Position numbers and translations under genes: made by a program. A model generated the notes under the pieces. It saw nothing but the letters and a program-made list of their open reading frames with translations. It did not search any database and was not told the origin of the DNA. A stretch of DNA of 64,000 bases, from assembly GCA_019634695.1 (NCBI GenBank), contig JAHCAW010000004.1, positions 64,831 to 128,830 of the forward strand, read 5' to 3'. Numbering within the stretch: position 1 is the stretch's first letter; each line of letters starts with the position of its first letter. This document shows positions 1 to 37,825 of the stretch, piece by piece. This stretch comes from Candidatus Sumerlaeia bacterium (GTDB lineage: Bacteria > Sumerlaeota > Sumerlaeia > SLMS01 > JAHLLQ01).

Positions 1-200
1 CCCTGCGGGCGATGGGCGTAGGGGGCGATCTTCTGCTCGGGCCAGCGACAGCCGGCCAATCCAGTGAAGGCCGCCGACGCGGCCAGCAGCGCCAGGAAGC
101 GCCGCCGCGGGAAGGTCGCCGGGTCGTCGTCGCCGACCCCTTCGGGCATCGTGCCTTCCAGATCTTCCAAGCTTCGCCAGGTGTCGGGGTAGGAATCCAT
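1..200 (-). CDS. actB: Alternative complex III subunit ActB (molybdopterin-family/FeS subunit), N-terminal fragment running off the window start
   Basis: My own reverse translation from the ATG at 200 gives MDSYPDTWRSLEDLEGTMPEGVGDDDPATFPRRRFLALLAASAAFTGLAGCRWPEQKIAPYAHRPQG. It has a twin-arginine RRRFL signal and the WRSLE-type opening typical of ActB. It starts 8 nt after the actA stop. It is absent from the ORF track because it is truncated. Confidence 0.7.
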   Translation of the reverse strand, partial: MDSYPDTWRSLEDLEGTMPEGVGDDDPATFPRRRFLALLAASAAFTGLAGCRWPEQKIAPYAHRPQ

Positions 201-208
201 GGGCTCTC

Positions 209-904
209 TCATCGGTGGCACGTGGAACAATCGGTGGAGGCGAAGACGCCGGGGTGGCTGGCTTGGCCGCTGCCCAGCGACATCCAGCCGTCCGTGGGCA
301 CCCAGTCCATCCGCGTGACGGCCTCGGGTGGCCGCAGGTGCGGTGTCGGGTCGCGATGGCAGTCCAGGCACCAGCCCATGCTCAGGGGCTGCACCTGCGT
401 GACGACTCCCATCTGGTCCACCCGGCCATGGCACGAGGCGCAGCCGACGCCGGCGGCGACGTGCGCCGAGTGGTCGAAGTAGGCGTAATCGGGCAGGTCG
501 TGTACCTTGATCCAAGGGATCGGGGTGCCTTCGGCGAAGCTGGTCCGCACGAGGTCGAGCGTCTCGACGGTCGTGCCGATCGAGGCATGGCAGTTCATGC
601 AGGTCGACGTCGGCGGGATGCCGGCATGGGCGGATCGCTCGACCGAACTGTGGCAGTAGCGGCAGTCCAGCCCGAGCTGGCCGGCATGCACCTCATGGCT
701 GAAGGGCACCGGCTGGATCGGGGCGTAGCCCACGTCCAGGGTCATCGGGGAGCCGCCGTACCAGACCAGGGCGACCAGATAGACCGGGGCGCCGAGCAGC
801 ACGACGGCCGCGCCGTACTTGATCCGATTCGTCCACTTCGAAAGACAACCATGATCGACGGAAAGCTCGCAGGGGCCTGTTCCGGTGGGTCCGGGGTGGC
901 GCAC
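209..904 (-). CDS. actA: Alternative complex III pentaheme cytochrome c subunit ActA
   Basis: One N-terminal TM helix (KYGAAVVLLGAPVYLVALVWY) is followed by five CxxCH motifs (CRYCH, CMNCH, CASCH, CLDCH, CSTCH). The gene lies directly upstream of actB. The track ORF runs to GTG 1024. I prefer the in-frame GTG at 904, but the start is uncertain. Confidence 0.75.
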   Translation of the reverse strand: MRHPGPTGTGPCELSVDHGCLSKWTNRIKYGAAVVLLGAPVYLVALVWYGGSPMTLDVGYAPIQPVPFSHEVHAGQLGLDCRYCHSSVERSAHAGIPPTSTCMNCHASIGTTVETLDLVRTSFAEGTPIPWIKVHDLPDYAYFDHSAHVAAGVGCASCHGRVDQMGVVTQVQPLSMGWCLDCHRDPTPHLRPPEAVTRMDWVPTDGWMSLGSGQASHPGVFASTDCSTCHR

Positions 905-1045
905 CTCGCAGCGTCGCAGTGTCGAGAGTCGGGCACAAAAAAAGCCGGGAGTGCAAGACAAAACGACATTGACATCCAGAAATCCTTTGAGCACGCTTCG
1001 GCCACGCTCAACGACTTCGACCACCCCTCACCGGCAGCCCTCCCC

Positions 1046-2158
1046 ATGGCGACCTCCTCCTCCCGCCCCACCTGCCTGCTGTGCTCCGTCCGGCCCCCGG
1101 CGCTGCTCGTGGATGCGGGCCTGGTCGGTCTGGCGGGCATTTGGGCGGGCGTGGCGCTGGTCAGCGTGCTGGCGGTGGTAGTGGCGCGGTTCTACCACCC
1201 GGTGGAGTTCGCGGCCGCGACGGCGCTGGTCGAGTCCGGCTGGCCGATGCTGTCGACGGCGGCGCTGCTGGTCGGGGCGCTGACGGCGGCGTTGGCGGTT
1301 CGGGCGGCGTTGTGTGACGAGCGGGCAAAGGCGGCCGTGTTGCTGGCGGTGACGGTGGTGGCGGGCGCGGACTTCGTGGCCGTGCGTGTGATTGAGGGCG
1401 TCCGCATGGGGCGCGAGCACGCCGAGTGGGTGCGTCTGGCGGCGCAGCCGGTCGAGTTGCCGGCGGGCGCCGCGTTGGTGAAGGCGCCGGATGCGGCGCG
1501 CGGGGCGGAGCTCTATGGCGCGACGTGCGCGGCCTGCCATGGTCGGCAAGGCGAAGGCGTGCCGCGTCTGGGCAGTCCGCTGGCCGGCAGCGCCTTCCTG
1601 AAGGAACTCGACGCCGAAGGCATGGTGGCCTTCCTGCGCACCGGTCGCCAGCCAACCGATCCGCGCAGCCTCATGCGCATGGTGATGCCGGCACGCGGCG
1701 GCAATCCGATGCTGACCGACGGCGACCTCGGCGACATCGCCGCGTTCCTTGAGGAGCGTCTGGCCGCCGAGGCCGGCGCCGGAAATGTCGCTGCGGCGAC
1801 AACGCCCGCAGCACCGGTCTTCGAGCGCCATCGCTCGGCAGTCCCGCCGGCTGCGGTGGGGCCCTCCGGGCTGAGCGAGCGCTACCGCGCCGCGCACGCC
1901 TTCGACGGCACCGGGCCGATTCCGGAGGTGCTGATGGCGGCGCCCAATCGCTTTCCGACGTGGCTGATGATCCTGACCGGCCTGCACGGATTGCTCGTGG
2001 CGGGCGGGCTCGTGGTGCTCGGGGCGCTGGCGGTGCCGCTGCTGCGCGGGCCGCTGGGCCATGTGCCGCGCGTGGCATTGTTCCTGGCATGTGCCGCTTA
2101 CCAGATGATGGCGGCTTTGTGGCTGGTGCTGGTCCCATTCTTGTACGGTCCGTCCTGA
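1046..2158 (+). CDS. COX3/NorE-like polytopic membrane protein with an inserted class I monoheme cytochrome c domain
   Basis: The N-terminal TM helices carry a COX3/NorE-like pattern (PMLSTAALLVGALTAALAVRA...LLAVTVVAGADFVAVRVIEG). The C-terminal helices read LTGLHGLLVAGG and AAYQMMAALWLVLVPFLY. A soluble segment between them carries CAACH (ELYGATCAACHGRQGEG) and a downstream MVMPARGG Met region. The first ~277 codons of track ORF 215..2158 are antisense to actA and were trimmed to ATG 1046. Confidence 0.65.
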   Translation: MATSSSRPTCLLCSVRPPALLVDAGLVGLAGIWAGVALVSVLAVVVARFYHPVEFAAATALVESGWPMLSTAALLVGALTAALAVRAALCDERAKAAVLLAVTVVAGADFVAVRVIEGVRMGREHAEWVRLAAQPVELPAGAALVKAPDAARGAELYGATCAACHGRQGEGVPRLGSPLAGSAFLKELDAEGMVAFLRTGRQPTDPRSLMRMVMPARGGNPMLTDGDLGDIAAFLEERLAAEAGAGNVAAATTPAAPVFERHRSAVPPAAVGPSGLSERYRAAHAFDGTGPIPEVLMAAPNRFPTWLMILTGLHGLLVAGGLVVLGALAVPLLRGPLGHVPRVALFLACAAYQMMAALWLVLVPFLYGPS

Positions 2159-2198
2159 TGGGCGGCGGTCGAACGATCCTGTCTGGGAGGTGCCCGGC

Positions 2199-5100
2199 GT
2201 GAACGTGACGCGCAGAAAGTTCCTGAAGTGGTCGCTCGGCGGCGCGGTGGTCGCCGTCGGCAGCCTGCAACTGGGCTATGCGCTCGACGGCCTGCAACCG
2301 GCCGTGGGCGTCGAGAACCCGTTGCTGTCGTATCCCAACCGCGACTGGGAGAAGGTGTATCGCAACATCTTCCAGCCCGACCAGTCCTACTACTTCATGT
2401 GCACGCCGAACTGCACGCACAACTGCCTGCTGCGGGCGGAGGTGAAGAACGGCGTCGTGGTGCGCGTGGGGCCGTCGATGCGCTATCACGAAGCGACGGA
2501 CCTGTACGGGACGAAGGCGAGCCAGCGCTGGGATCCGCGCATCTGCAACAAGGGGACGATCCTGCCGCGGCGCATTCACGGCGACCGGCGCGTGAAGCAC
2601 CCGATGGTGCGCAAGGGCTACAAGCAGTGGGTCGAGCAGGGGTTCCCGCGCGATGCGAACGGCCTGCCGCCGGCCGAGATGTTCCGCCGGGGCGAGGACG
2701 AGTACATCGAGGTTACCTGGGAGGAGGCGTTCGCGCTGGCGGCCAAGGGGCTGCACGAGACGGCCCGGCGCTACTCGGGCAAGGAGGGCGCGGCGATGCT
2801 GACGCGCCAGGGCTACGACGAGGCGATGGTTGCCAAGGCTGGCGGGGCGGGCACGCGCTGTATGAAGTTCCGCGGCGGCATGCCGGCGCTCGGTCCGATC
2901 AAGCTCTTCGGCCTCTACCGCATGGCGAACATGATGGCCCTCGTCGATGCGAACGTGCGCGGCGTCGGCCCCGACGCGGCTCGCGGCGGCATCGGGTTCG
3001 ACAACTACTCATGGCACACCGACCTGCCGCCCGGGCACCCGATGGTCACCGGCCAGCAGACCGTCGACTTCGACCTGTCGAACACCGAGTACTGCGACGT
3101 CGTGATCTGCTGGGGCATGAACTGGCTGTGCACCAAGATGCCCGACTCGCACTGGCTCACCGAAGCCAAGCTCAAGGGCAAGCGCGTCATCGCGATCATG
3201 ACGGACTACAACGCGACGGCGGCGAAGGCGCACGAGGTGGTGATCGTGCGGCCGGGCACCGACCCGGCGCTGGCGCTCGGCATGGCGCAGGTCATCATCG
3301 CCGAGAAGCTGTACGACGAGGACTTCGTCAAGTCGTTCACGGACCTGCCGCTGCTGGTGCGCACGGACACCGGGACGCTGGTGCGCGCCGGCGACGTGCT
3401 GCCGGGCTACACGAACAAGACGCTCGAACGCACCGAGGTTGCTTCCACACGCGGCGACCTGCCGCCGGCCTACAAGGTCGATCGCGAGTTCGGCGCCGTC
3501 ACGGCCGAGCTGCGCGAGAAGTGGGGCGACCTGCTGATGTGGGACAAGCGCACGAACGCCCCCGTGGCCGTCAACCGCGACGAGGTCGGCAAGTACTTCC
3601 CCGGCGACACGATCGACCCGGCTCTCGAGGGTGAGTTCACTGTCACGATCGACGGCGAGTCCGTTGCCGTCCGCACGGTCTTCTCGCTCGTCCGCCAGCA
3701 CCTCGACGACACCTGGACGCCGGAGGCGACCTCGCGCGTGACGTGGGCGCCCGTCTCGGCGATCCGCAGCCTCGCGCGCCAATGCGCCGCGCACCCCGAG
3801 CGCGTCCTCTTCGCCACTGGCATGGGGCCCAACCAGATGTTCAACGCGGACCTGAAGGACCGCGCGATCTTCCTCGTGGCGGCGCTGACGCGCAACGTCG
3901 GATTCCCCGGCGGCAACGTCGGCAGCTACGCCGGCAACTATCGCTCCGCCTACTTCAACGGCATCCCCCAGTACGTCGGCGAGAATCCCTTCGACATCAA
4001 CCTTGATCCCGACACGCCGGCCCGCGTGCGCACCTTCTTCTCCATGCAGTCGGCGCACTTCTACTCGCACTGCGACCGCCCGCTGCGCGTGCACGGCCGC
4101 AACTTCACCGGCGACACCCACATGCCGACGCCCACCAAGTCGCTCTGGTTCGCCGGCTCGAACTCGCTGCTCGGCAACTCCAAGGGCCACTTCGACGTCG
4201 TGATGAACCTGCTGCGGCATCCCGACTACCGCGCGAAGTCCGAGTACGGCCGCATGATCGAGTGCGTCTTCGTCAACGAGTGGTGGTGGAGCGGCTCGTG
4301 CGAGTACGCCGACATCGTCTTCGCGATCGACAGTTGGGCCGAGTACCGCCAGCACGACGTGACGCAGTCCTGCACGAACCCCTTCATGCAGGTGATGCCG
4401 CTGGGCGAGATTCCGCGCATCCACAACACGCGGTCGAACGCCGAGGTCTACAAGGGCGTCGCGCAGGAGCTGGCGCGCCTGACCGGCGACACGCGCTGCG
4501 CCGACTACTGGGCCTTCATCTCCGACACCCACCGCGCAAAGCCCTACATCCAGCGGATCCTCGACCACTGCAACATGTTCAAGGGCTACCGCGTCGACGA
4601 CCTTGTCGAGCAGTGCAAGCAGGGCATCCCCGCCATGATGATGGGGCCGACGTATCCGAAGTACATTGGCCACCGCCAGAGCATCGAGTCCCGGCCTTGG
4701 TACACCCGCACCGGCCGCCTCGAGTTCTACCGCGACGAGAAGGAGTTCCTCGAGCACGGCGAAAACCTGCCCGTCTACCGCGAGCCGGTCGACTCGACCT
4801 TCTACGAACCCAACGCCATCGTCGCCCAGCCGCATCCGTCGATCCACCCGACGACGCCCGAGCAGTACGGCTTCGATTCCGCCGACATGAGCGGCGACAC
4901 GCTGCAAGTGCGCAATGTCGTCCGCACGGTCGACGAGTTGATGCTCACGAAGCATCCCATGATGGGCCAGGGCTACACGCACATCTGGCTGACGCCCAAG
5001 TACCGCCATGCGGTGCACACCTTCGGCGTGGACATCGACTTCATGTCGCTGCACTTCGGTCCGTTCGGCGACATGTATCGGCACGACAAGCGCAAGCCGT

Positions 5101-5687
5101 GGGTGGGCGAGGGCTACGTCGAGATGAACCCACACGACGCCCGCGAACTCGGTCTCGACGACGGCGACTACGTCTGGATCGACGGCAACCCGGAGACGCT
5201 GCCCTTCCGTGGCTGGCAGGAACGCCCCGAGGAGTACAAGGTCGCCCGCTGCATGCTGCGGCTGCGTTACTTCCCGGGCATCCCGCGCGGCGTCACGCGC
5301 ACGTGGTTCAACATGTACATGGCCTCGTTCGGCACGGTGAAGGCGCAGGCCACACGCGCCGACGGCCTGGCACGCAGCGCCGCCACGGGCTACCAATCCA
5401 TGTATCGCTTCGGCGGCCACCAGAGCGGCACGCGCACTTGGCTGCGCCCGACGCTGCTGACCGACACGCTCGTCCGGAAGGACTACCTCGGCCAGATCAT
5501 CTCAACCGGATTCTCGCCTGACGTGCACTGCGCCAACGGCGCGCCGCGCGAGTCGTTCGTCAAGTTCACCAAGGCCGAGGACGGCGCTCCGGAGGGTGGG
5601 CTTTGGCCGCGTGCCCGTCAGGGCATGCGCCCGGGCTACGAGACGGAAACCGTTCGCAAGTACATCGCAGGCAGCTTCGTGTCCTGA
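2199..5687 (+). CDS. Type II DMSO-reductase-family molybdopterin catalytic subunit, NarG/NxrA-like, Tat-exported
   Basis: Twin-arginine signal ([28 protein letters not shown]). FS0-type N-terminal cluster motif CTPNCTHNC...RICNKG. The segment [11 protein letters not shown] aligns with the NarG Asp-ligand region. The ~1160-aa length is in the range of NarG/NxrA. GTG 2199 sits 8 nt after GGGAGG; the track start GTG 2190 overlaps that RBS. Confidence 0.85.
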
Positions 5688-5707
5688 TCCCGCTGGAGGT
5701 GATTCCC

Positions 5708-6847
5708 GTGCCCAAGGTCTACAACTGGCAAATCGGCCGCGAGATGGAATACCCCTACGAGCCCGGCCGGCCCGACAAGCAGTTCTCCGCCGTCTTCGAC
5801 ACGAACAAGTGCATCGCGTGCCAGACGTGCTCGATCGCCTGCAAGACCACATGGACCTCCGGTCGCGGCCAGGAGTACATGCTCTGGAACAACGTCGAGT
5901 CCAAGCCCTACGGCAGCTTCCCGCTCCAGTGGGACCTCAAGGTCCTGGACATGATCGGCGGCGCGTCCTGGGAGGGCGACCGCTATGTCGGCAAGACGAT
6001 CTTCGAGAAGGCCGTTGAGAACGGCCAGACTGTTGAAGGCTTCCTGCCCACGCTCGAGGACTGGTCCTACCCCAACTGCGGCGAGGACGAAATGGCCGGC
6101 GAACCGCTCGTCGGCGGCTACCACATCGACGAGGTCGCCCATCCCGTCTGGTTCTACTACCTGCCGCGCATCTGCAATCATTGCAGCTTCCCCGGCTGCC
6201 TTGCCAACTGTCCGCGTCAGTCCATCTACAAGCGTCCGGACAACGGCATCGTGCTCATCGATCAGGAGCGCTGCCACGGCTACAAGCAGTGCGTGAAGGG
6301 CTGCCCGTACAAGAAGGCCATGTTCAACTCGGAGACGGGCCGCTCGGAGAAGTGTATCGGCTGCTATCCGAAGGCCGAAGCGGGCCTGGCCACGCAGTGC
6401 ATCGAGCAGTGCATCGGCAAGATTCGCATTCAGGGCTGGATCAGCCCGCCAGAGCAGGCGCGCGAGGACAACCCGATGGACTACCTCGTGCACGTCCGCA
6501 AGGTCGCGCTGCCGATCTATCCGCAGTTCGGCACGCTGCCCAACGTGTACTACATCCCGCCGATGACGGTGCCGGAGCCCTTCCTGCGTCAGATGTTCGG
6601 ACCGGGTGTGACGCGCGCGCTGCGCATCTACCGCGAGGAGCTGCCCAACGATCCCGAGCTGCAAGGGCTTCTCCTGCTGTTCGGCTCGACGAATCAGATC
6701 ATGACGCGCTTCGACGTGCGTGACGGTTGGGCCCACGGCTATCGCCGCGACGGCAAGGAAGTCGCCCGCGTGCCGATCACCGAGCCGCTCGTCGTGCGCC
6801 CCGCCTACGATCCGCAGTACGACGTCGTTCGCCTCGACACCACCTGA
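5708..6847 (+). CDS. Type II DMSO-reductase-family FeS beta subunit, NarH/NxrB-like
   Basis: Four ferredoxin-type Cys groups are present: CIACQTCSIACK, CNHCSFPGCLANCP, CHGYKQCVKGCPYKK and CIGCYPKAEAGLATQCIEQCIGKIR. They closely mirror the NarH motifs. GTG 5708 is preceded by GGAGG. The upstream part of track ORF 5603..6847 overlaps the alpha subunit and was trimmed. Confidence 0.85.
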   Translation: MPKVYNWQIGREMEYPYEPGRPDKQFSAVFDTNKCIACQTCSIACKTTWTSGRGQEYMLWNNVESKPYGSFPLQWDLKVLDMIGGASWEGDRYVGKTIFEKAVENGQTVEGFLPTLEDWSYPNCGEDEMAGEPLVGGYHIDEVAHPVWFYYLPRICNHCSFPGCLANCPRQSIYKRPDNGIVLIDQERCHGYKQCVKGCPYKKAMFNSETGRSEKCIGCYPKAEAGLATQCIEQCIGKIRIQGWISPPEQAREDNPMDYLVHVRKVALPIYPQFGTLPNVYYIPPMTVPEPFLRQMFGPGVTRALRIYREELPNDPELQGLLLLFGSTNQIMTRFDVRDGWAHGYRRDGKEVARVPITEPLVVRPAYDPQYDVVRLDTT

Positions 6848-6865
6848 CCCCGGGACCGGAGCATC

Positions 6866-8515
6866 ATGACGCCCCCCTCTGCCCCCACGCCCAAAGCAAC
6901 GCCGGTCGGCCTGGTGCTCGCCGCCGTCGCGGCCGTCTTCGTGCTCAACTTCCTGATCCTGGGCTATTCGACGCAGATGGCGCTGAAGCCCGCGCCGACG
7001 CGCGTCGCGCCTCCCGCGCCTATCGCCCGCGCGACGCCGGCGCCCGTGCCGCCGCCCGCGCTGCTGGCACGCTTCATCGCCGTTCCGCCGCCGGCGGACC
7101 CGCACGATGCCGCGTGGGCCAACGCGCCGGAGCTCCCCGTGCTCCTCGGGCCGCAGGAAGTCTCGTTGCCCTTCGGCGGCGGATCGGTCGCCGAGGTCTC
7201 GCTGCGTGCGCTGCACGATGGCGATACGATCGCCTTCCGGCTCGAGTGGGCCGACGACTCGGTGAACAGCGCGCGCGCCGTCGATGCGTATCGCGACGGC
7301 GCGGCGCTCCAGTTCCCGCTGGCCGGTTCGCCGACGCCGCCGTCGGCGCTCATGGGCGAGCGCGGCAAGCCGGTCGCCATCTGGCATTGGCGCGCCGACT
7401 GGCAGGATCCTGCGCCCACGGCATCTGCGGCCGAGGCGACATGGTATCCGCCGAACTCGGAACTGGTCGCGCGTGGCTTCGCGCAACCGCCCGCGCCGGC
7501 CGTTGCATGCGTCGAGTATCTCTCCGAGGGCTGGGGCACGCTGACGCGGCAGCCCGCGCACCACGTCGCTGCGCGCGGCAATCACCGCGACGGCGTCTGG
7601 GCTGTGGTCTTCCAGCGTCCGCTCGGTCGCGTCATGCCGCACGAACCGGTCTTCGTCGCCGGCGAATCCACGCATGTCAACATCGCCGTCTGGAATGGAT
7701 CCGAGGGCGACGTCAACGGGCTCAAGTCGGTCTCGACTTCGTGGACGCCGCTCGAGATCGAGAAGCTTCCCGAGTCCGACCGCCTCACCGCGCGTTATGT
7801 TGCGGGCGCGTTGCCGCTCGATCCGACGGACCCCTTCTGGGCCGCGCAGCCCGCACAGGTCGTTGGCCTCGTGCCGCAGCGGCTCGTGCTGCCGTTCGGC
7901 GGGGGAGCGGTCGGCCGGTTGCACTTCCGCGCCGCGCATGACGGGCGCCGGATTGCCTTCCACTTGCAGTGGCGCGACGACACGGCCGACATGGAGAATG
8001 GCGTGGACACCTATCGAGACTCGGTGGCGATGCAGTTCCCGAGCCGCGGCGCCACGACGATGCCATCGCCGCTGATGGGCGAGCGCGACAAGCCGGTCGC
8101 CATCTGGCAGTGGCGCGCCGACTGGCAGGCCGGCGCCGGCGACCGTCTGCGTCGCCAGCCCGCACCCGAAAGCCTGCTCGTCGCCGCCACGTCGTTCGAC
8201 ACGCTGCCGCGCGGGATGTTCGACCGTCCCGTGCCCGAGACCAGCGCCGCCAAGTTCGTCGCCGCCGGCTGGGGTACTCTCACCCGTCAGGTGCGCCAGG
8301 ACATCGCCGCCCATGGCGTTCACGCCGATGGCCACTGGCACGTCGTCTTCGTGCATGACCTGGCCACGGACGATCCCACCGATCCCGCGTTCCGACCCGG
8401 CGAGACCACGGCCGTCAACTTCGCCGTCTGGAACGGCATCGCCCGCGAGGTCAATGGCCTGAAGTCCATCCGCATGGAGTGGATGCCGCTGCACGTCGAG
8501 CCGGCGCCGAAGTGA
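6866..8515 (+). CDS. Putative gamma subunit with two tandem EB_dh (ethylbenzene-dehydrogenase gamma, heme-b-type) domains and an N-terminal membrane anchor
   Basis: N-terminal TM/signal anchor (VGLVLAAVAAVFVLNFLILGY). Two internally repeated modules are visible. Module 1: LRALHDGDTIAFRLEWADDSV...YRDGAALQFP...LMGERGKPVAIWHWRADWQ. Module 2: FRAAHDGRRIAFHLQWRDDTA...YRDSVAMQFP...LMGERDKPVAIWQWRADWQ. Its position after alpha and beta matches type II DMSOR operons. Confidence 0.7.
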   Translation: MTPPSAPTPKATPVGLVLAAVAAVFVLNFLILGYSTQMALKPAPTRVAPPAPIARATPAPVPPPALLARFIAVPPPADPHDAAWANAPELPVLLGPQEVSLPFGGGSVAEVSLRALHDGDTIAFRLEWADDSVNSARAVDAYRDGAALQFPLAGSPTPPSALMGERGKPVAIWHWRADWQDPAPTASAAEATWYPPNSELVARGFAQPPAPAVACVEYLSEGWGTLTRQPAHHVAARGNHRDGVWAVVFQRPLGRVMPHEPVFVAGESTHVNIAVWNGSEGDVNGLKSVSTSWTPLEIEKLPESDRLTARYVAGALPLDPTDPFWAAQPAQVVGLVPQRLVLPFGGGAVGRLHFRAAHDGRRIAFHLQWRDDTADMENGVDTYRDSVAMQFPSRGATTMPSPLMGERDKPVAIWQWRADWQAGAGDRLRRQPAPESLLVAATSFDTLPRGMFDRPVPETSAAKFVAAGWGTLTRQVRQDIAAHGVHADGHWHVVFVHDLATDDPTDPAFRPGETTAVNFAVWNGIAREVNGLKSIRMEWMPLHVEPAPK

Positions 8516-8543
8516 GCCGCATGTCCCCGAGAGGAGTTCTTCC

Positions 8544-9200
8544 ATGACCGACACGCCCACCGCACTCGAACAGGCCGCACTGCGCTCGCGCGTCTACGGC
8601 CTGCTGGCCCGCGCGCTCCGTCCGCCCGACGAAACGGAGCACGCCTGGCTGCGCGAGGAGTTCCTGCCCGCCGCGCATGCGCTTGCCGTCACGCCGGACG
8701 ACCTGCTTGCCGAGGACGAACTCCCCACTCTCGAGCAGCACCGTCGCGACTTCCACCAGCTCTTCGACTCGCACGGGCCCATGACGGTCACGCCCTACGC
8801 CATCGAGTACCTCAAGGAGTGGCCGCAGCAGTCGCTGCTCGACACCGTGCAGCTCGCCGACGTCCAGGGCTTCTACCGCGCGTTTGGGCTCGAGGTTTCC
8901 CAGACGGGATCGGAGCGATGCGACCATGTGCGTCTCGAACTCGAATTCCTGCACTTCCTCGGTCTCAAGGAGGCCATCGCGCTCGACCGCGAGGACGCCG
9001 AGCACCTCGAGGTTGTCCGGCACGCGCAGAAGCGCTTTCTCGAGGACCATGCGGGTCGCTGGCCCGCCCGCTTTGCCGACGCCGTCGAGCGTCACGACGC
9101 CCCGGTCTACTACTGCAAGCTCGCCCGCCTCATCCGCACCTGGGTCGAGACGGACATGAAAATGGTGGGCTGCACGCCCCGCCGACCCGTCACCGTTTGA
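8544..9200 (+). CDS. TorD/NarJ-family maturation chaperone for the type II DMSO-reductase-family enzyme
   Basis: This ~218-aa acidic cytoplasmic protein has the opening LRSRVYGLLARALRPPDE typical of TorD/NarJ-like chaperones. It occupies the fourth position of the operon and has a GAGAGGAG RBS. Confidence 0.7.
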   Translation: MTDTPTALEQAALRSRVYGLLARALRPPDETEHAWLREEFLPAAHALAVTPDDLLAEDELPTLEQHRRDFHQLFDSHGPMTVTPYAIEYLKEWPQQSLLDTVQLADVQGFYRAFGLEVSQTGSERCDHVRLELEFLHFLGLKEAIALDREDAEHLEVVRHAQKRFLEDHAGRWPARFADAVERHDAPVYYCKLARLIRTWVETDMKMVGCTPRRPVTV

Positions 9201-9218
9201 CTTCCGGAGCCCGCCGCC

Positions 9219-9539
9219 ATGACCTCGCCCGAGACACCCGACGACGCCCTGCCGCCCCCTGCCTCCTCCGGCCTGACTTTTCTGGTCGCCATCGGCCTGC
9301 TGGCGGTCGCCTTGGTCCAGATCGTCCTGCTGCGGGGCGGACTCTCCTGGAGCGCGCCGGCCAGCCTCGCCCTGGCGTCCGCCCAGGCGATTCTCGTCGG
9401 AGCGCTGATGATCCCGATCCGCCGCCGGCCGTTTGTCCTCTTCCTCTGGATCGTGACCGTCCTGTTCGTGGCGGCCTTCATCGGCATGGTCGCGGCGGAC
9501 CTGCAAGCCCACTTCGGCCCGCCGGTCTGGGCGCGCTGA
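9219..9539 (+). CDS. Small three-TM membrane protein (weak resemblance to prokaryotic COX4/NorF-type small subunits)
   Basis: The 106-aa product has three hydrophobic helices, is tightly linked to the chaperone gene (18-nt gap) and is followed by a hairpin. The family assignment is weak. Confidence 0.5.
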   Translation: MTSPETPDDALPPPASSGLTFLVAIGLLAVALVQIVLLRGGLSWSAPASLALASAQAILVGALMIPIRRRPFVLFLWIVTVLFVAAFIGMVAADLQAHFGPPVWAR

Positions 9540-9673: not shown

Positions 9674-10621
9674 ATGCAACCGAAGCATTTGTCACTGCTC
9701 GCCGCTGGGGCATTGTGCCTCGTCGGTACCGCCGTCCAGGCCCAGCCGCACAAGCTGTTGATCTCCGAGGTGATCATCGACTGCATTAACCCGGAGGCGT
9801 CCAACGACTCCAGCGAGTGGATGGAAATCTACAATCCCAACAACTTTGCGGTCAGCCTCGACAACTACTACATCACCGACGTGAACTCCTACTGGACCTT
9901 CACGACCGCGACGGACAACAAGCTGCCGACGGCCGACTCGGACCACCTGATCGGCTTCCCGATCGGCTCGTCGATTCCGGCCAACGGCATCGTCGTCGTC
10001 ACGGCCCTGGCGAGCCGCTTCCTGACAGACTACCTCGACGGCAATCTGGCGACCTTCACCTCCCTGCCGGGCAACCCGCAGCTCTTCCAGGTGGGGCCGA
10101 CGCCGCCGGTCGGCGTCGAGCGCATGCGCAACTTCCACACCCTCGAGACTGCCAACGCCCAGACGAACTTCAGCCGCACGAATGCCGCCGCCGCCAACGG
10201 CGAATTCTCCGTCCTCTTCTACTGGGACGGCAACGCGTCCAACAACGTCGTGGACATCGACATGGTCTCGTGGGGCAACCCGACCGGCGGAAACCTGATC
10301 GCGCCGAAGACGGGCGTCAACGCGCCGGGCTACCAGGTCGATGGCGGCTCGCACACGAATCTCAGCGTCGGAACATTCGCGGCGATCTATCGCATCAGTG
10401 CGGCCGAACCCGGCCAGCCGAGCTCGGGCGGCAACGGCGTCGGCGGCACCGACGAGACGATGGAGATCAACGGCGCCACCGAGGCGAGTTCCTCCTGGCG
10501 CGGTCTGGCCATTGCCAATGTGCCAACCTACACGAACAACGACTTGGTCAACCCCGACGGAGTGACGCCGGGCGTCTCGCCGTTGCAGACCTCCAACGTC
10601 TCGACCTGGCCGATGTACTGA
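9674..10621 (+). CDS. Secreted lamin-tail-domain (LTD) protein
   Basis: Signal peptide (LLAAGALCLVGTAVQAQ), then an LTD signature: LLISEVIIDC...SSEWMEIYNPNNFAVSLDNYYITD. Confidence 0.7.
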   Translation: MQPKHLSLLAAGALCLVGTAVQAQPHKLLISEVIIDCINPEASNDSSEWMEIYNPNNFAVSLDNYYITDVNSYWTFTTATDNKLPTADSDHLIGFPIGSSIPANGIVVVTALASRFLTDYLDGNLATFTSLPGNPQLFQVGPTPPVGVERMRNFHTLETANAQTNFSRTNAAAANGEFSVLFYWDGNASNNVVDIDMVSWGNPTGGNLIAPKTGVNAPGYQVDGGSHTNLSVGTFAAIYRISAAEPGQPSSGGNGVGGTDETMEINGATEASSSWRGLAIANVPTYTNNDLVNPDGVTPGVSPLQTSNVSTWPMY

Positions 10622-10773: not shown

Positions 10774-12306
10774 GTGCGACACACGCTGATCCTGACACTC
10801 AGCCTGGCTCTTCCGGCATCGGCGTGGCCTTTCGATCCGTGGGCCGGAGATCTGGCCAAAGACAATCCGGCCTATGTGCGCGTGCTCACCTACAACGTCC
10901 TCAATGCTTTCCCGGCAGGCACGTCGGCCCAGACCGCCGCGCACGAACGCATCCTGACGGCAATACAACCCGATGTCATCTCCTACCAGGAGATGGACCC
11001 GGGCATCGGCGCGACGCTCAAGACAACCCTCGAGCGCGTTCTCGGCGGCACCTGGCACACCTACGAAGGCCTCAGCGATGGCTTCAACGTCAATGTCGTG
11101 GCGTCGCGCTGGCCCCAGAGCCTGCGACGTCGGGACACCTTCCCCGCCTCCTCGTTTCGAGGCACGACGATCGCCCTGATCGACCTGCCGAACGAAACCT
11201 ATCCGGTGGACCTGTACTTCATGGCGGTTCACTTCGCCTGCTGCGCCGGGACGGACCGCGACGCGTTTCGCCAGCGCCACGCCGACGCGATCGCGGCGTG
11301 GATGGGCGACGCCCGACAACCCGGCGGCAACATCACGCTGCCCACGGGCACGCCGATGGCCGTCGTCGGCGATTTCAACTTCAACGACAGTTCCGCGCCC
11401 GGCGCCCGCACCACCCTGTTGACCGGTGCGATCGCCGACACCGCAACCTTCGGCCCGCCGGTCAAGGGCGACTGGGACGGCACCGATCTCGGCGAGGCAC
11501 TGCCGCTCGATCCCTACACGATGCGATTCAATACGTTCAGCAGCGCCGGCTCGAATCCAGGCTCGTGGCTGGACCGTTTCTACTACACCGACTCGGTGGC
11601 GAACGTCGCGCAGGCTTTCGTTCTCAACACGCTGACGATCCCGGCCGCGCAACTCGCGTCGCTCGGTCTCCAGTCGACCGACACCCAGACCGCGTCGGAC
11701 CACTTGCCCGTCGTGGTCGACTTCGCCTTCGCCCCGATTCCCGTGTCGGAAGCCGGGTACGGCGAGCTGTTCGTCACCGAGTTCCAGCCCGACCCGACCC
11801 TCGTTCCCGACGCCGACGGCGAGTGGTTCGAGCTGTTCAACGCCTCCGCCGGTCCGGTCGACATGAACGGATGGATTCTGCGCGACTCGGGCAGCAACCT
11901 TCATGTCCTCCGGCGGACCGGCGGCGTCGTGGTGCCGCCGAAAAGCCACTTCGTCTTCGGGCTCGACGCGAATCCTGCGACGAATGGGGGCGTGCCGGTC
12001 GACTACGCGATCCCGAGTGGATTCCGGCTGGCAAACGGAGCGGACACGATCGAACTCTACCGCGGCTCGATCAAGATCGACGGCATCGAGTACAACAGCG
12101 GTGCGGCGGGAATGGCGCCGGCGAATCGATCTGCTGGCCCGGTCGGCCCCGCCAGCGCGCGCGCCATGCAGGGGCTCTACTTTCGCGGCGCCACGCAGAC
12201 ATGGGGGAACGCGACGACTCCATACAACGCGCAGGATCGCGGCACCCCAGGCACATGGAACGAGACCTCGAAGCCGGTGCTCGAGTCGCTCTGGATCGTC
12301 GAGTAG
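10774..12306 (+). CDS. Secreted endonuclease/exonuclease/phosphatase (EEP) family enzyme with a C-terminal LTD
   Basis: Signal peptide (LILTLSLALPASA). EEP motifs: VLTYNVLN, VISYQEM, SDHLPVVVDF. C-terminal LTD: ELFVTEFQPDP...GEWFELFNASAGPVDMNGWILRD. GTG 10774 follows GGGAGG. The upstream part of track ORF 9817..12306 overlaps the previous gene out of frame and was trimmed. Confidence 0.75.
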   Translation: MRHTLILTLSLALPASAWPFDPWAGDLAKDNPAYVRVLTYNVLNAFPAGTSAQTAAHERILTAIQPDVISYQEMDPGIGATLKTTLERVLGGTWHTYEGLSDGFNVNVVASRWPQSLRRRDTFPASSFRGTTIALIDLPNETYPVDLYFMAVHFACCAGTDRDAFRQRHADAIAAWMGDARQPGGNITLPTGTPMAVVGDFNFNDSSAPGARTTLLTGAIADTATFGPPVKGDWDGTDLGEALPLDPYTMRFNTFSSAGSNPGSWLDRFYYTDSVANVAQAFVLNTLTIPAAQLASLGLQSTDTQTASDHLPVVVDFAFAPIPVSEAGYGELFVTEFQPDPTLVPDADGEWFELFNASAGPVDMNGWILRDSGSNLHVLRRTGGVVVPPKSHFVFGLDANPATNGGVPVDYAIPSGFRLANGADTIELYRGSIKIDGIEYNSGAAGMAPANRSAGPVGPASARAMQGLYFRGATQTWGNATTPYNAQDRGTPGTWNETSKPVLESLWIVE

Positions 12307-15580: not shown

Positions 15581-16072
15581 GTGAAACGCTGGGCGCTGAT
15601 CGCAGTCTTTCTTGGGATCTCCTTCGGGGTGGCGGGGGGGCTGGGGCTCTACACGTTCTACTACGCCGAGGGCGCCTCGTACCTCTCCAACGACCCGGCA
15701 GCCTGCATGAACTGCCACGTCATGCGCGAGCAGTTCGACGGTTGGACCAAGTCGAGCCACAAGCACGTCGCCTCCTGCAACGACTGCCACACGCCGCATG
15801 ACTTCTTCGGCAAGTACATGACGAAGGCGATCAACGGCTACTATCACTCGCTGGCGTTCACGACCGGCAACTTCCACGAGCCGATCCGCATCAACGCCCG
15901 CAACCTGCGCGTGACCGAGAGCACCTGCCGCAGTTGCCACGCCGACATCGTCAACGCCATCGACGCGCATCCCCTGATCCCCGCCGAACCCACCGCCGCG
16001 GCCGCCGACCCGGCCGCCTGGCAAAGCATCTCCTGCGTGCGCTGCCACGCCTCGGTCGGACACCTGCACTGA
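15581..16072 (+). CDS. nrfH: NrfH tetraheme cytochrome c quinol dehydrogenase (NapC/NirT family)
   Basis: N-terminal TM helix plus four CxxCH motifs (CMNCHVM, CNDCH, CRSCH, CVRCH). The first is in the CxxCHxM context typical of NrfH. The gene is immediately upstream of nrfA. Start is GTG 15581. Confidence 0.85.
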   Translation: MKRWALIAVFLGISFGVAGGLGLYTFYYAEGASYLSNDPAACMNCHVMREQFDGWTKSSHKHVASCNDCHTPHDFFGKYMTKAINGYYHSLAFTTGNFHEPIRINARNLRVTESTCRSCHADIVNAIDAHPLIPAEPTAAAADPAAWQSISCVRCHASVGHLH

Positions 16073-16088: not shown

Positions 16089-17513
16089 GTGATGGAAACC
16101 CCCGCACCCCGCAAGGAACGTCGTCGCCTGGTCATGCTGTTCGTCGGCACCGCCGGCGCCACGGCGCTCGTCACGGCCCTGATCGCCGCCCTGCTCCTGA
16201 CGATCTTCGAGCACAAGCAGGAGGAGAAGACGCTGTTCTTCCGCGTGGTCGAGATCGACGACGAAACCTACGACCCGGCGATCTGGGCGAAGAACTTCCC
16301 CCAGCAGTACGACTCCTACATGCGCACGGTTGACATGGAGCGCACCCGCTACGGCGGCAGCGAGGCGATCCCGCGCGAGCCCGACGACGCCGACCCCCGC
16401 AAGTTCGTCGCCTACTCCAAGCTCGTCGAGGACCCGCGCTTGGTCACGATGTGGGCCGGCTATCCCTTCGCCCACGACTTCCGCGAGGAACGTGGCCACG
16501 CCTACATGCTCGAGGACCAGTCCTTCACCAAGCGCCACGAGGCCGCGCCGCAGCCCGGCGCCTGCATCAACTGCCATTCCTCCGCCTACGAGGCCTACAA
16601 GACATTGGGCAACGGCGACATCGTCGCGGGCTTCCACAAGCTCAATGCCCTGCCCTACCCCGAGGCCCGCGCCCACGTCTCGCATCCGGTCGCCTGCATC
16701 GACTGCCACGACCCCAAGACCATGCAACTGCGCATCACCCGCCCCGCCTTCATGGAAGGCATCAAGCTCGTCAAGGCCGCCGAAGGCATCGAGAACTACG
16801 ACGTCAACCTGATGGCCACCCGCCAGGAGATGCGCTCGTTCGTCTGCGGCCAGTGCCACGTCGAGTACTACTTCAAGGGCGCCGAGAAGACGCTCACCTA
16901 TCCGTGGCACAAGGGCCTGCGCGGCGACGACATTCTGGCGTACTTCGACGAGGTGGGCTTCAAGGACTGGACGCACGCCAAGACCGGCGCGCCGATGCTC
17001 AAGGCCCAGCACCCCGAGTTCGAGATGTGGAACCAGGGCGTGCACTCCAAGGCCGGCGTCTCGTGCGCCGACTGCCACATGCCCTACGAGCGCGTCGGCG
17101 CCATGAAGGTCAGCAGCCACCACGTGCGCAGCCCACTGCTCAACATCGCGTCGTCCTGCCAAACCTGCCACCGCGTGCCCGAGGAGGAGTTGCTCAACCG
17201 AGTCCACGCAATCCAGGACCGGCACTACGAGTTGCGCAACATCGCCATGGATGCGCTGATGGACCTTGTCGGCGCGATCGTCGAGGCACAGGAGGCCGGC
17301 GCCTCGCCCGACGAGATGGCCGCCGCGTGCGACTTCCAGCGCAAGGCGACCTTCCTGCTCGACTTCGCCGAGGCCGAGAACTCGATGGGCTTCCATGCGC
17401 CGCAGGAGGGCGCCCGCATTCTGGGCAAGTCGCTCGACTACGCGCGCCAGGGCTTCAAGTCCGTCAGCGAATTCTGGCGCGAACGCCAGACCGCCGTCGC
17501 GGCCGGCAACTGA
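16089..17513 (+). CDS. nrfA: Pentaheme cytochrome c nitrite reductase NrfA (ammonia-forming)
   Basis: Five heme motifs: CINCH, CIDCH, CGQCH, CADCH, CQTCH. The NrfA signature LKAQHPEFEMWNQGVHSKAGVSCADCHMP closely matches enterobacterial NrfA. There is an N-terminal anchor/signal. The start is GTG 16089 or ATG 16092. Confidence 0.9.
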   Translation: MMETPAPRKERRRLVMLFVGTAGATALVTALIAALLLTIFEHKQEEKTLFFRVVEIDDETYDPAIWAKNFPQQYDSYMRTVDMERTRYGGSEAIPREPDDADPRKFVAYSKLVEDPRLVTMWAGYPFAHDFREERGHAYMLEDQSFTKRHEAAPQPGACINCHSSAYEAYKTLGNGDIVAGFHKLNALPYPEARAHVSHPVACIDCHDPKTMQLRITRPAFMEGIKLVKAAEGIENYDVNLMATRQEMRSFVCGQCHVEYYFKGAEKTLTYPWHKGLRGDDILAYFDEVGFKDWTHAKTGAPMLKAQHPEFEMWNQGVHSKAGVSCADCHMPYERVGAMKVSSHHVRSPLLNIASSCQTCHRVPEEELLNRVHAIQDRHYELRNIAMDALMDLVGAIVEAQEAGASPDEMAAACDFQRKATFLLDFAEAENSMGFHAPQEGARILGKSLDYARQGFKSVSEFWRERQTAVAAGN

Positions 17514-23872: not shown

Positions 23873-26260
23873 TCAGAATGTCAACTCGCCGTTGAGGAAG
23901 GCCATCGAGCGGGCCATGATCTCGGTGCGATGGGCCTCGTCCTGGATGGTTTCGAACGGGAAGGCAAGGTAGACGAGGCGCCATGGGCCGGCGTAGCGGA
24001 TGGCAGCGGCCTCGCCGGGGGCGCCGTTCGGATAGGTCAGGAACGCTTGGGCGCCGCCCATGGGACGCAGGACATCGGCGGTCGTGACGGGATAGGTGCG
24101 GCCGGTGCCGTCGTCGAAGGCGAGCGTGTCGACGCGCAGCAGCAGGCCGTCGCGAGCGTTTGCCGCCTGATTGATGCGCGCGGCGGGCCGGATGCACTCG
24201 ACCTTGAGCATCTCGCGCAGGAAGTCGCCGGCCAGATCGCGGCTGGCAAAGCCCAAGTCCGAGGCCAGGTTCGAGCCCGACACGAACAGGTTGCCGCCCG
24301 ACTCCAGGTACTCGCGCACCAGACGCCGTTCGAAACCGTCGAACGTCGAGCCCTCGCCCTCGTTGCCCAGCATCCACACGACGATGCGGTAGTCGCGCAG
24401 GCGCACGTCGCCGGCGATCACCGCCTCGTTGCTCGTCGAGTCGAAGTGCCAGCCCGTGGCGTGCAGCGCACTGCCGTGCTGCACCACGTAGTCGAACGTG
24501 TTCATCTTCGCGACGATCGTGCGTTCGAACTCGTTCCCGGGGAACGTCGTCGAGTCGACGAGGTTGAGGCCGCGGTCGAGCCGGTCGAAGCCGTTGACGA
24601 CGAGCACCTCGGGCTGAAGCGTGCGCTCGGGTGCGCGAACGGCCAGCGTCTCGGTCGGCATCGATTCGCCGCCCTCGTTGACGGCCACAACGCGGAAGTA
24701 CTCGACCTGTCCGGGCAGCACACCCTCGAGCACCGTGCTGGTCGTATCCACCACCGTGCCGTTGTCGAACCCGTAGCCATTGCGCGAGCGATACACGCGA
24801 TAGCTCGTCGCGGCGTCGCCCAGCACGCCGTCGCCCTTGTCGAACGCCGGCGGGTTCCACGCCACCTCGATGCGGTTCATGCCCGTCTTGCGCACGCGCA
24901 GGTGCGTGGGCGGCTCGGGCAGGCGCGTCGCGATGTCGAAGCCGTCGACCTCTTCATGGAAGTACTTCAGGATGCCATGGTAGACGGCGCGGGCGGAGAT
25001 GCGCCGGAAGTCCGGATCCAGAATGTGTCCCGCGTCGGCGGGATTGTCGTGATAGCCGTTCTCGACGAGCACCGCCGGCATCTTCGCGTTGGCCGCCGGA
25101 TTCGTCTCGCCCAGCCAGCGCGTGATCAGGCCGACGTCCTCCCAGCGCGCATCGTAGGCCGTGCGCACATGGTGCAGCACCTCGTCGTGGACGATGCGGC
25201 CGAGCACGTCGCCGCCCGGATAGCCCGTGAAGTCCCACGGCGGGCCCCACGCATTCGGTCCGTAGATGTAGGTCGACAGCCCGCTCATCGTGTGCGTCTC
25301 GCTGCCGTTGGTGTGCCACGACACGTAGATCGAGCGATTCTTCTCCCACGGCTCGGCTTCCCACTCGGCATAGCGCGGCATCGCCCGCACCTGGTTCCAG
25401 GTGCGCAGGTCGTCCTCGGCCACCGGCATGCCCATGAACGGGGCGTAGTACAGGCCGGACTCCTCCCAGCGCGGCTTGCCGCTCAGGGTGCCGGCGACGC
25501 GCGTGTCGCCCATGCCGCCGCCAAAGCGCACCGCACCCAGCGCCACATGCTCGCCGGCGCGACTGCTCGAGTTGTCCAGCACCACGGCGCCGCGCAGCGC
25601 GTCGCGTCCCGCCTCGAAGTGATACGTGCCCAGGTACTTCCAGGTGCTGTGGTCGCGGTTCAGGTCCTGCCGCCATTCGGTCGAGCCACCGCTGTGGCGG
25701 ATCGTCAGGCGCGCGTCGGTGCTCGTGCGTCCGCGCCGCACCGGCGAGTACCACGCGTAGACCGCGTAGTAGCCGTCGGCGGGGATGCGCGGCACATAGG
25801 CGACACGCGCGTTCGGCTCGCCCCGCACCGTCGAGGCGACCAGTTGCGTGCCCCCCCAGACGTTTTCGTTGTCCTCGCGCTTCCACGATCCCTGCGTGAC
25901 CGGCGATCCGCTCTCGGCGGTCACCACGGCCATTTGCGTCTGCATGTCGCGCTCGCGCGTCGTCACGACGTTGGCGCCAGCGTTCCACAGGTACGGCAGC
26001 AGAAACTGGTTCACCGCCTCGGCGTTGCTCAGGTCCTCGACGATGCGATTGAGCGGACCCCGCTGGGTGGTCCAGCGGCCGTTGGTGTGGTGCCAGCCGT
26101 GGCCGGCACTGACGAAGATCGTCGCGCCGGTCAGGGCGCCCACCGGCTGGGCCTCGCCCCGCTCGGGGGGCTTGGTCTTCGAGGCCGGGGCCGCGGTCGC
26201 CAGCACGGCGGCCAGCCCGGTTCCCGCAACGGCTCGTCCGATTGTCCGAAGTCTGCTCAT
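23873..26260 (-). CDS. Exported multidomain protein, paralog 1: split Amidase_3-like (MurNAc-L-Ala amidase) domain with a golvesin-like insertion, an FN3 domain and an uncharacterised C-terminal domain
   Basis: Signal peptide present. Amidase_3-like elements: SAGHGW, NAEAVNQ, NVVTTRERD, IYVSWHTN, VLVENGYHDN. Golvesin-like pattern: PADGYYAVYAWY...WKYLGTYHF...GAVRF. FN3-like segment: PTHLRVRKTGMNRIEVAWNPP...YRVYRS. The start was trimmed to ATG 26260 (MSRLRTIG); track ORF 23873..27232 reads through into the paralog. Confidence 0.7.
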   Translation of the reverse strand: MSRLRTIGRAVAGTGLAAVLATAAPASKTKPPERGEAQPVGALTGATIFVSAGHGWHHTNGRWTTQRGPLNRIVEDLSNAEAVNQFLLPYLWNAGANVVTTRERDMQTQMAVVTAESGSPVTQGSWKREDNENVWGGTQLVASTVRGEPNARVAYVPRIPADGYYAVYAWYSPVRRGRTSTDARLTIRHSGGSTEWRQDLNRDHSTWKYLGTYHFEAGRDALRGAVVLDNSSSRAGEHVALGAVRFGGGMGDTRVAGTLSGKPRWEESGLYYAPFMGMPVAEDDLRTWNQVRAMPRYAEWEAEPWEKNRSIYVSWHTNGSETHTMSGLSTYIYGPNAWGPPWDFTGYPGGDVLGRIVHDEVLHHVRTAYDARWEDVGLITRWLGETNPAANAKMPAVLVENGYHDNPADAGHILDPDFRRISARAVYHGILKYFHEEVDGFDIATRLPEPPTHLRVRKTGMNRIEVAWNPPAFDKGDGVLGDAATSYRVYRSRNGYGFDNGTVVDTTSTVLEGVLPGQVEYFRVVAVNEGGESMPTETLAVRAPERTLQPEVLVVNGFDRLDRGLNLVDSTTFPGNEFERTIVAKMNTFDYVVQHGSALHATGWHFDSTSNEAVIAGDVRLRDYRIVVWMLGNEGEGSTFDGFERRLVREYLESGGNLFVSGSNLASDLGFASRDLAGDFLREMLKVECIRPAARINQAANARDGLLLRVDTLAFDDGTGRTYPVTTADVLRPMGGAQAFLTYPNGAPGEAAAIRYAGPWRLVYLAFPFETIQDEAHRTEIMARSMAFLNGELTF

Positions 26261-30073: not shown

Positions 30074-30272
30074 TCGTCCCGCGGCAACGCCGCGACTTGA
30101 CGCACCCTTACACCCCCGGCCCGCAGCCCCAACGCTGCGGGCCGGTTTGCGTCTGGCGGCCAGTCCCCCAACGTCGCAAATCCACCTCTTTTGAGTTGCA
30201 CCGCTTGGGCTTCCCGGCTCGTTGTATTATGTCTGGAAATACTTGGGAATCCTCCTCATGGAGAGTGCGACG

Positions 30273-37763: not shown

Positions 37764-37825
37764 CTTGCGTCTCCTGAGGGTGGGAGTGGGTTTGCGGTCG
37801 AGGGTTCCGGGGTGGTGTTGGCGAG

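Follow-up and report, generated by a model that had tools for sequence, protein, structure and literature searches.

The nitrite oxidoreductases (NXRs) that Nitrospira, Nitrospina, and anammox bacteria possess have a sister clade that is recognized in the literature and holds the nitrate reducers Methanoperedens, Thermogutta, and Hydrogenobacter (PMC6050957, PMC10732223). The Hydrogenobacter thermophilus enzyme is reported as a periplasmically oriented nitrate reductase (NAR) (PMC6050957), and the NXR of the nitrite oxidizer Nitrotoga fabula is placed in the same clade (Kitzinger et al. 2018, PMC6050957). In the catalytic subunit of the Kuenenia stuttgartiensis NXR, NxrA, the iron-sulfur cluster FS0 is ligated by C67/D71/C75/C115, the substrate residue is Asn70, and Asp275 ligates the molybdenum (Mo) (Chicano et al. 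2021, PMC8387239). Here, we analyzed a 64-kb stretch of contig JAHCAW010000004.1 from an uncultured Candidatus Sumerlaeia bacterium (the window), a metagenome-assembled genome (MAG) in which positions 2199 to 9200 of the forward strand carry four intact, closely packed genes for the alpha, beta, and gamma subunits and the chaperone of a related enzyme. The locus forms a complete operon encoding a Mo enzyme that converts nitrate/nitrite and acts outside the cytoplasm, which is a known kind of enzyme. Its gamma subunit carries a doubled heme b domain, a new observation that was overlooked in the initial annotation of this sequence.

Family membership and active site of the alpha subunit

The Kuenenia NXR (7B04) is the best solved relative of alpha (over its full length), of beta (Table 1), and of gamma (E = 8e-40). 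Alpha matches the Pfam families Molybdopterin (PF00384), Molydop_binding (PF01568), and Molybdop_Fe4S4, as expected of a type II member of the dimethyl sulfoxide (DMSO) reductase family with a molybdo-bis(pyranopterin guanine dinucleotide) (Mo-bisPGD) fold. It remains far under the NCBIfam cutoffs for narG (144 versus 1084 bits) and ebdA (164 versus 2000 bits) and also under that of the generic type II model DMSO_red_II_alp (TIGR03479; 321 versus 985 bits), which is why it is annotated merely as a molybdopterin-dependent oxidoreductase. Beta contains 16 Cys and matches DMSO_red_II_bet (E = 1.5e-76), whereas the narH model gave only 187 bits on the operon (cutoff, 524). The chaperone matches DMSO_red_II_cha at an E value of 1.4e-23, which is under the family cutoff. 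The Pfam and NCBIfam matches together bear out the four-gene set proposed in the initial annotation, namely a molybdopterin alpha, a NarH-like four-cluster beta, an EB_dh-type heme b gamma, and a dedicated TorD/NarJ-type chaperone, the combination that characterizes type II DMSO reductases. Membership in canonical NarG, an outcome that would overturn that annotation, was looked for and not found: besides the low narG and narH scores, the operon has no NarI gene, and alpha carries a genuine twin-arginine translocation (Tat) signal.

For phylogenetic placement, we built a distance-based (neighbor-joining) tree of 66 alpha sequences (1120 columns, 100 bootstraps) from relatives found in genomes and protein searches, 50% representatives, and Kuenenia NxrA taken from the PDB alignment, with more distant type II DMSO reductase-like representatives as outgroups. 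Nitrospira, Nitrotoga, Nitrobacter, and Hydrogenobacter references are not part of this set; the 50% representatives and protein cluster look-ups yielded no named Nitrospira, Nitrotoga, or Hydrogenobacter sequence, and a search seeded with Kuenenia NxrA returned anammox, Nitrospinota, and NC10 relatives and no Nitrospira. The periplasmic NXR/NAR family was recovered at 100% bootstrap support with the Sumerlaeia alpha nested inside. Within it, clade I (100%) consists of anammox, Nitrospinota, and NC10 sequences with the Mo loop WHGDQAPGHP, and its sister, clade II (85%), contains the Sumerlaeia alpha and has a 10-residue Mo loop that differs from WHGDQAPGHP. Alpha belongs to a subclade (100%) with Inmirania thermothiophila, Ca. 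Magnetominusculus, Myxococcota, Entotheonella, and SAR324 MAGs and its closest relative, locus L052, and this subclade is sister (95%) to a group with Methanoperedens NarG and Thermoguttaceae. Alpha is 76% identical to L052, 66% to Inmirania, 52% to Methanoperedens NarG, 51% to the Thermoguttaceae enzyme, and 38 to 39% to Kuenenia and Nitrospinota sequences. Tree position and Mo loop place it outside the clade of the proven nitrite oxidizers (Nitrospira/Nitrospina/anammox NxrA) and within the sister clade. A view of clade II as consisting of nitrate reducers only was considered and dropped, as the Nitrotoga NXR has been placed in the sister clade (PMC6050957). Among loci L001 to L051, gene order tracks alpha phylogeny, being alpha-beta-gamma-delta (delta, the chaperone gene) in the subclade of the Sumerlaeia alpha and mostly alpha-beta-delta-gamma in the Methanoperedens/Planctomycetota/Acidobacteriota group.

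Export of the enzyme is predicted from alpha. Its gene starts with GTG behind a ribosome-binding site (GGGAGG, positions 2185 to 2190), and although the NCBI call for the identical protein begins two residues later (1160 amino acids), the RR-type motif is kept under both starts. This motif (TRRKFLK, residues 4 to 10) is followed by a hydrophobic stretch, and because the RR pair sits at the matching position in nearly all of the 66 inspected homologues, the Tat signal is not a start site artifact. Beta, by its hydropathy profile, has no hydrophobic N terminus and no signal peptide; its start was set by the 379-amino-acid orthologues in loci L052, L134, and L135, the longer open reading frame (ORF) of the initial annotation beginning at position 5603. 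A Tat signal on alpha and none on beta is the pattern of periplasmic NXR/NAR enzymes. Together with the 7B04 matches and the bootstrap support, it substantiates the initial proposal of a type II DMSO reductase that faces the periplasm and resembles Nxr or pNar.

The active site features named in the initial annotation were likewise confirmed by alignment to Kuenenia NxrA. The FS0 motif CTPNCTHNC (residues 68 to 76, nucleotides 2400 to 2426) and RICNKG (residues 114 to 119) supply the equivalents of the Kuenenia FS0 ligands and substrate residue, in the order C68-x3-C72-x3-C76...C116 and hence within the type II pattern (H/C)-x3-(C/D)-x3-C...C, and the segment compared with the Asp Mo-ligand region of NarG contains Asp275, aligned to the Asp275 of Kuenenia. 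Cys as the first FS0 ligand, in place of the His of Escherichia coli NarG, agrees with the description by Chicano et al. (2021). As those authors describe FS0 only as 3Cys/Asp or 3Cys/His (PMC8387239), the all-Cys FS0 was at first taken as an unusual trait. This idea was rejected: each clade contains both Cys and Asp variants, and an all-Cys FS0 is also seen in Nitrospinota, NC10, and outgroup sequences.

The gamma subunit and comparison with known enzymes

The gamma subunit (549 amino acids) has an N-terminal transmembrane anchor (residues ~8 to 40), a Pro/Ala-rich linker, and two complete EB_dh domains, as judged from hydropathy and Pfam matches, and it scores 273 bits against the type II gamma model DMSO_red_II_gam (TIGR03477), above the 170-bit cutoff. 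The Met and Lys of each domain, predicted to be the axial ligands of heme b, align to Met155/Lys305 of NxrC and Met108/Lys201 of EbdC. An alignment of 13 sequences shows no variation at either residue, and both halves keep the pair along with the other invariant columns, so that the ligand pair of a heme b-binding EB_dh gamma is present twice. Because a full-length MAFFT alignment scattered single-domain homologues over both halves, the halves were modeled separately. The AlphaFold2 models of domain 1 (mean predicted local distance difference test [pLDDT] score, 80) and domain 2 (76.5) both had 7B04_C as the best Foldseek match (E = 2e-21 and TM score of 0.82 for domain 1; E = 1e-19 and TM score of 0.77 for domain 2).

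The two domains share 47% identity, more than either shares with other gammas (42% at most), which points to duplication within the lineage followed by divergence rather than to an assembly artifact. The tandem arrangement was absent from 121 related genomic and metagenomic loci, all with a single domain and a gamma match never exceeding 801 nucleotides; in relatives whose alphas are 68% identical, gamma measures 276 and 301 amino acids. A protein search found no second two-domain homologue, although this search was word limited and gave 12 matches only. The contig of L052 stops after 136 codons of gamma. It could be argued from these observations, and from the fact that the doubled gamma is known from one MAG contig only, that it is an assembly or annotation artifact or a decaying duplicate, the functional enzyme having an ordinary one-heme gamma. 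We find this highly improbable. An identity of only 47% rules out the halves being collapsed strain variants; no stop codon interrupts the frame at the junction between cleanly bounded domains; G+C content at third codon positions (GC3) is 0.87, which is typical of genes in the window; the NCBI annotation has the same 549-amino-acid ORF; and both halves, besides keeping their conserved columns, model as complete folds.

Variation in gamma architecture within the NXR-like family is already known, as Nitrospina has EB_dh proteins carrying added heme c sites (PMC3578206). The literature consulted on NXR-type enzymes makes no mention of a doubled heme b domain. Three metagenomic gamma homologues (P0128, P0130, and P0131) have EB_dh fused to Cytochrome_CBB3/Cytochrom_C, which represents another route to a second heme. 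The tandem two-heme gamma of the Sumerlaeia locus and its dedicated membrane cytochrome c, encoded directly upstream of alpha, are lineage-specific variations.

Compared with Kuenenia NXR-ABC, the Sumerlaeia enzyme shows full-length homology in alpha, beta, and gamma and shares Tat export, the Mo-ligand Asp275, the substrate Asn, a Cys as the first FS0 ligand, Met/Lys-ligated heme b in an EB_dh gamma, and a NarJ-like chaperone in the cluster. It differs in that alpha is 38% identical and falls in the other clade with another Mo loop, FS0 has four Cys instead of three Cys and Asp71, and gamma is membrane anchored and doubled, whereas NxrC is soluble and single domain. The Sumerlaeia locus showed no NXR-T tubule subunit, and the gene neighborhood differs, with alternative complex III (ACIII) and NrfHA genes here. 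The periplasmic Nar enzymes of Methanoperedens and Thermogutta/Thermoguttaceae belong to the same major clade (sister groups at 95%) at 51 to 52% alpha identity and have the same Mo loop, a Tat signal, and an EB_dh gamma, but their FS0 has Asp, their gamma is single domain, and their gene order is alpha-beta-delta-gamma, in contrast to alpha-beta-gamma-delta here. The Inmirania, Magnetominusculus, Myxococcota, Entotheonella, and SAR324 orthologues are closer (60 to 68% identity, 100% bootstrap), with the Sumerlaeia gene order and a CTPN(C/D)THNC FS0 motif. Unlike the Sumerlaeia locus, they have single-domain gammas of 275 to 310 amino acids, no ACIII or nrf genes within 10 kb, and no upstream CyoC-like membrane cytochrome c, Magnetominusculus having a different cytochrome c gene there.

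In the machine-read supplement of Chicano et al., legible in its first blocks only, the N-terminal motifs of the Nitrotoga and Hydrogenobacter enzymes resemble those of the Sumerlaeia alpha. Nitrotoga NxrC is a single domain without a transmembrane helix (PMC6050957), in contrast to the doubled and anchored Sumerlaeia gamma. With E. coli NarGHI, the Sumerlaeia enzyme would share nitrate/nitrite chemistry, an Asp side chain as ligand of the Mo, FS0 together with four clusters in beta, and a chaperone of the NarJ type. NarGHI is cytoplasmic, however, lacks a Tat signal, has His as the first FS0 ligand, and uses the diheme NarI as its membrane subunit where the Sumerlaeia operon has an EB_dh protein.

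Substrate, direction of reaction, and electron path

The initial annotation held that the substrate cannot be read from the sequence. This stands for the direction of the reaction but not for the nitrate/nitrite pair, which is readable because alpha is nested in the NXR/NAR family, whose phenotyped members in the cited papers convert nitrate or nitrite. As both the Mo-ligand Asp275 and the substrate Asn71 are conserved, nitrate/nitrite is very probably the substrate pair. Another kind of type II DMSO reductase would have the same set of parts, since alpha, beta, EB_dh gamma, chaperone, and Tat signal are common to Ebd, Ser, Clr, Pcr, and Ddh enzymes, and alpha reaches no NCBIfam equivalog cutoff. 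Such an enzyme is hardly to be expected here, given that the matches of alpha to PcrA (4YDD_A, E = 1e-52) and EbdA (2IVF_A, E = 2e-42) are partial and fall ~200 orders of magnitude short of that to NxrA, that the nitrate/nitrite-positioning Asn is kept where EbdA has Ile (PMC8387239), and that the tree sets alpha apart from the distant type II outgroups.

As the clade includes both nitrate reducers and Nitrotoga, membership fixes the substrate pair and not the direction. We favor, with reasonable though not high confidence, a physiological role as the respiratory nitrate reductase of this Sumerlaeia bacterium. Alpha is closer to the Methanoperedens and Thermoguttaceae enzymes than to those of Kuenenia and Nitrospinota and sits in the clade that shares the non-WHGDQAPGHP Mo loop, and the genomic context (nrfHA downstream, divergent ACIII genes, and the upstream membrane cytochrome c) favors nitrate reduction. 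The cultured nitrate reducer Thermogutta terrifontis offers a precedent: its only described Nar is of this same deep-lineage type and adjoins complex III genes (bc1 there, ACIII here), with nitrite handled by NrfAH (PMC5673643). Sumerlaeota MAGs have been predicted to be heterotrophs with nrfAH and "narGHI" (PMC8092238).

Several points weigh against nitrate reduction. Only context bears on direction, and that context spans the 64-kb window and not the oxidase, carbon fixation, or other nitrate reductase genes that the MAG may hold elsewhere. Within the window, nrfHA is 6.4 kb downstream of the operon behind six unrelated genes, and tblastn of 53 related loci found no nrfA, nrfH, or actA (encoding an ACIII subunit) within 10 kb, so that the context argument cannot be generalized. 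ACIII usually feeds cytochrome oxidases, and its adjacency may therefore be coincidental. High-potential Met/Lys heme b suits either direction. Moreover, the Kuenenia NXR is bidirectional in vitro, and a true nitrite oxidizer, Nitrotoga, is said to have its NXR in the sister clade (PMC6050957), which together make nitrite oxidation a live rival. The enzyme would then be a true NXR that oxidizes nitrite in the periplasm and passes electrons through the two gamma hemes b and the membrane cytochrome c to a terminal oxidase. The best solved relative of alpha is indeed an NXR, the gamma hemes would have the high-potential ligation of NxrC, and a dedicated cytochrome c is the acceptor that a nitrite oxidizer needs (PMC3578206). 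Similar genes in Planctomycetota MAGs have been read as nitrite oxidation (PMC10732223), and Nitrotoga demonstrates that the sister clade is capable of it. We nevertheless consider this direction, which would make the bacterium a facultative nitrite oxidizer or at least a nitrite detoxifier, unlikely. Alpha is distant from the clade I NXRs and lacks their loop; relatives with a phenotype in the cited papers are the nitrate reducers Methanoperedens (PMC10732223) and Thermogutta (PMC5673643); the nearby nrfHA consumes nitrite reductively; the window has no carbon fixation or oxidase genes; and Sumerlaeota are predicted organoheterotrophs (PMC8092238).

Alpha is synthesized in the cytoplasm, where the NarJ/TorD chaperone presumably assists insertion of Mo-bisPGD, and carries a Tat signal; the signal-less beta would be exported together with it. 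The membrane-anchored gamma has two EB_dh domains, each with a Met/Lys pair for heme b. If the enzyme is a nitrate reductase, periplasmic reduction of nitrate, bound at the Mo (ligand Asp275) and positioned by Asn71, would yield nitrite. Electrons from quinol may pass through ACIII to c-type heme, next to the membrane cytochrome c of the operon, and on through the two gamma hemes, FS4 to FS1, and the all-Cys FS0 to the Mo. Nitrite would be reduced to ammonium by NrfHA, giving a wholly periplasmic chain for dissimilatory nitrate reduction to ammonium (DNRA). The path from ACIII to gamma is less certain than the nitrate-reducing role itself. Like the Kuenenia NXR, the enzyme probably works in both directions in vitro. 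A more speculative idea, to which we give little credence, is that the tandem gamma, the five-helix membrane cytochrome c, and the divergent ACIII form one dedicated electron wire, with the enzyme running either way. In that case, the Sumerlaeia bacterium would gain energy by ACIII-coupled periplasmic nitrate reduction in anoxia and could oxidize nitrite under oxygen, and a heterotrophic phylum would join the nitrate-making organisms.

Operon boundaries, neighboring genes, and significance

Six closely packed genes with intergenic gaps of 18 to 40 nucleotides occupy positions 1046 to 9539 of the forward strand (Table 1), and the operon extends to the upstream membrane cytochrome c gene and the downstream small membrane ORF, which may be its final gene. 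This ORF starts 18 nucleotides past the chaperone gene, and its GC3 is that of a typical coding sequence in the window. It matches no Pfam family, lacks a counterpart among the related loci, and may encode an extra membrane subunit. A promoter and terminator scan around the operon gave nothing informative. The membrane cytochrome c has three hydrophobic segments, a class I heme domain (CAACH at residue 161), and two more hydrophobic segments, with weak CyoC-like similarity in both transmembrane blocks. At L052, a conserved homologue with 53% identity lies immediately upstream of alpha; the gene was absent from the other related loci.

Table 1. Features of the operon and of neighboring respiratory genes in the window
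Feature	Position	Strand	Evidence or remarks
actB 5' end (ACIII subunit B)	1..212	-	Tat-type RRRF, APYAHRPQ; 6F0K_B residues 45-89, E 1e-5
actA (pentaheme cytochrome c, ACIII)	209..1024	-	five CxxCH; 6F0K_A E 1.5e-64
Membrane monoheme cytochrome c	1046..2158	+	Cytochrome_CBB3 E 6e-11; ends 40 nt before alpha
Alpha (Mo-bisPGD catalytic subunit, NxrA/NarG-like), 1162 aa	2199..5687	+	7B04_B E 1.4e-253; tree placement
Tat signal peptide, 28 residues	2199..2282	+	S/T-RR-x-F-L-K consensus; RR conserved in homologues
FS0 [4Fe-4S] ligands C68/C72/C76/C116 (all Cys) and substrate-positioning Asn71	2400..2555	+	alignment to Kuenenia NxrA
Mo-ligand loop with Asp275, alpha residues 271-281	3009..3041	+	aligns to Kuenenia WHGDQAPGHP (Asp275)
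Beta (four Fe-S clusters, NxrB/NarH-like), 379 aa	5708..6847	+	7B04_A E 1.6e-108; Fer4_11 E 1e-28
Gamma (anchor and tandem EB_dh), 549 aa	6866..8515	+	EB_dh E 3e-60, two matched stretches
EB_dh domain 1	7061..7765	+	predicted heme ligands Met163 (LMGERG), Lys287 (NGLKS)
EB_dh domain 2	7784..8512	+	predicted heme ligands Met404 (LMGERD), Lys533 (NGLKS)
NarJ/TorD-type maturation chaperone (delta)	8544..9200	+	Nitrate_red_del (PF02613) E 3.5e-18
Small membrane ORF, 106 aa	9219..9539	+	GC3 0.91; ~3 hydrophobic segments (hydropathy profile)
nrfH (tetraheme NapC/NirT-type quinol dehydrogenase)	15581..16072	+	one transmembrane segment and four CxxCH; outside operon
nrfA (pentaheme ammonia-forming nitrite reductase)	16089..17513	+	Cytochrom_C552 E 3.9e-132; five CxxCH; outside operon

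The ACIII genes are divergent from the operon, and actB runs past the left edge of the window. The actB translation matches Rhodothermus ACIII (6F0K_B), and its ATG (212 to 210) overlaps the actA stop as ATGA. ActA also matches 8K9E_A and 6LOD_A and belongs to the Cytochrome_C7 family; translation probably begins downstream of the first GTG. The heme motifs of the NrfA homologue are all CxxCH (CINCH, CIDCH, CGQCH, CADCH, and CQTCH), with no CxxCK; the active-site heme of classical NrfA carries a CxxCK motif.

Directly downstream of the operon are two adjacent lamin-tail-domain (LTD) genes on the forward strand, one (9674 to 10621) with an LTD match just below the Pfam cutoff (33.1 versus 34.3 bits) and one (10867 to 12306) that combines its LTD with an endonuclease/exonuclease/phosphatase domain. 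Across the remaining 45 kb of the window, the genes serve housekeeping functions or are related to polysaccharides, with no oxidase, carbon fixation, or other nitrogen cycle genes among them. Two genes, at 26257 to 28644 (reverse strand) and 47984 to 49486 (forward strand), encode Golvesin_C proteins, which combine this domain with an N-acetylmuramoyl-L-alanine amidase domain in one case and a polysaccharide deacetylase domain in the other. Three ORFs of 900, 424, and 406 codons (35811 to 38513, reverse; 30222 to 31496, forward; 49548 to 50768, reverse) have coding-like codon bias and no Pfam match.

NXR-like periplasmic enzymes are now known in many nonnitrifier phyla, where similar genes have already been described and where annotation pipelines label them "narG" or "molybdopterin oxidoreductase." Whether a host is classed as a source or a sink of nitrate depends on the direction in which such an enzyme runs. 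With NrfHA, ACIII, and a dedicated membrane cytochrome c, the Sumerlaeia locus is among the few that offer a usable context argument for direction, and on the reading favored here, a periplasmic DNRA chain would be assigned to a little-known phylum, Sumerlaeota. The doubled heme b subunit provides a natural experiment in the membrane wiring of these enzymes, which is a live question even for the NXRs of Nitrospira and Nitrospina.

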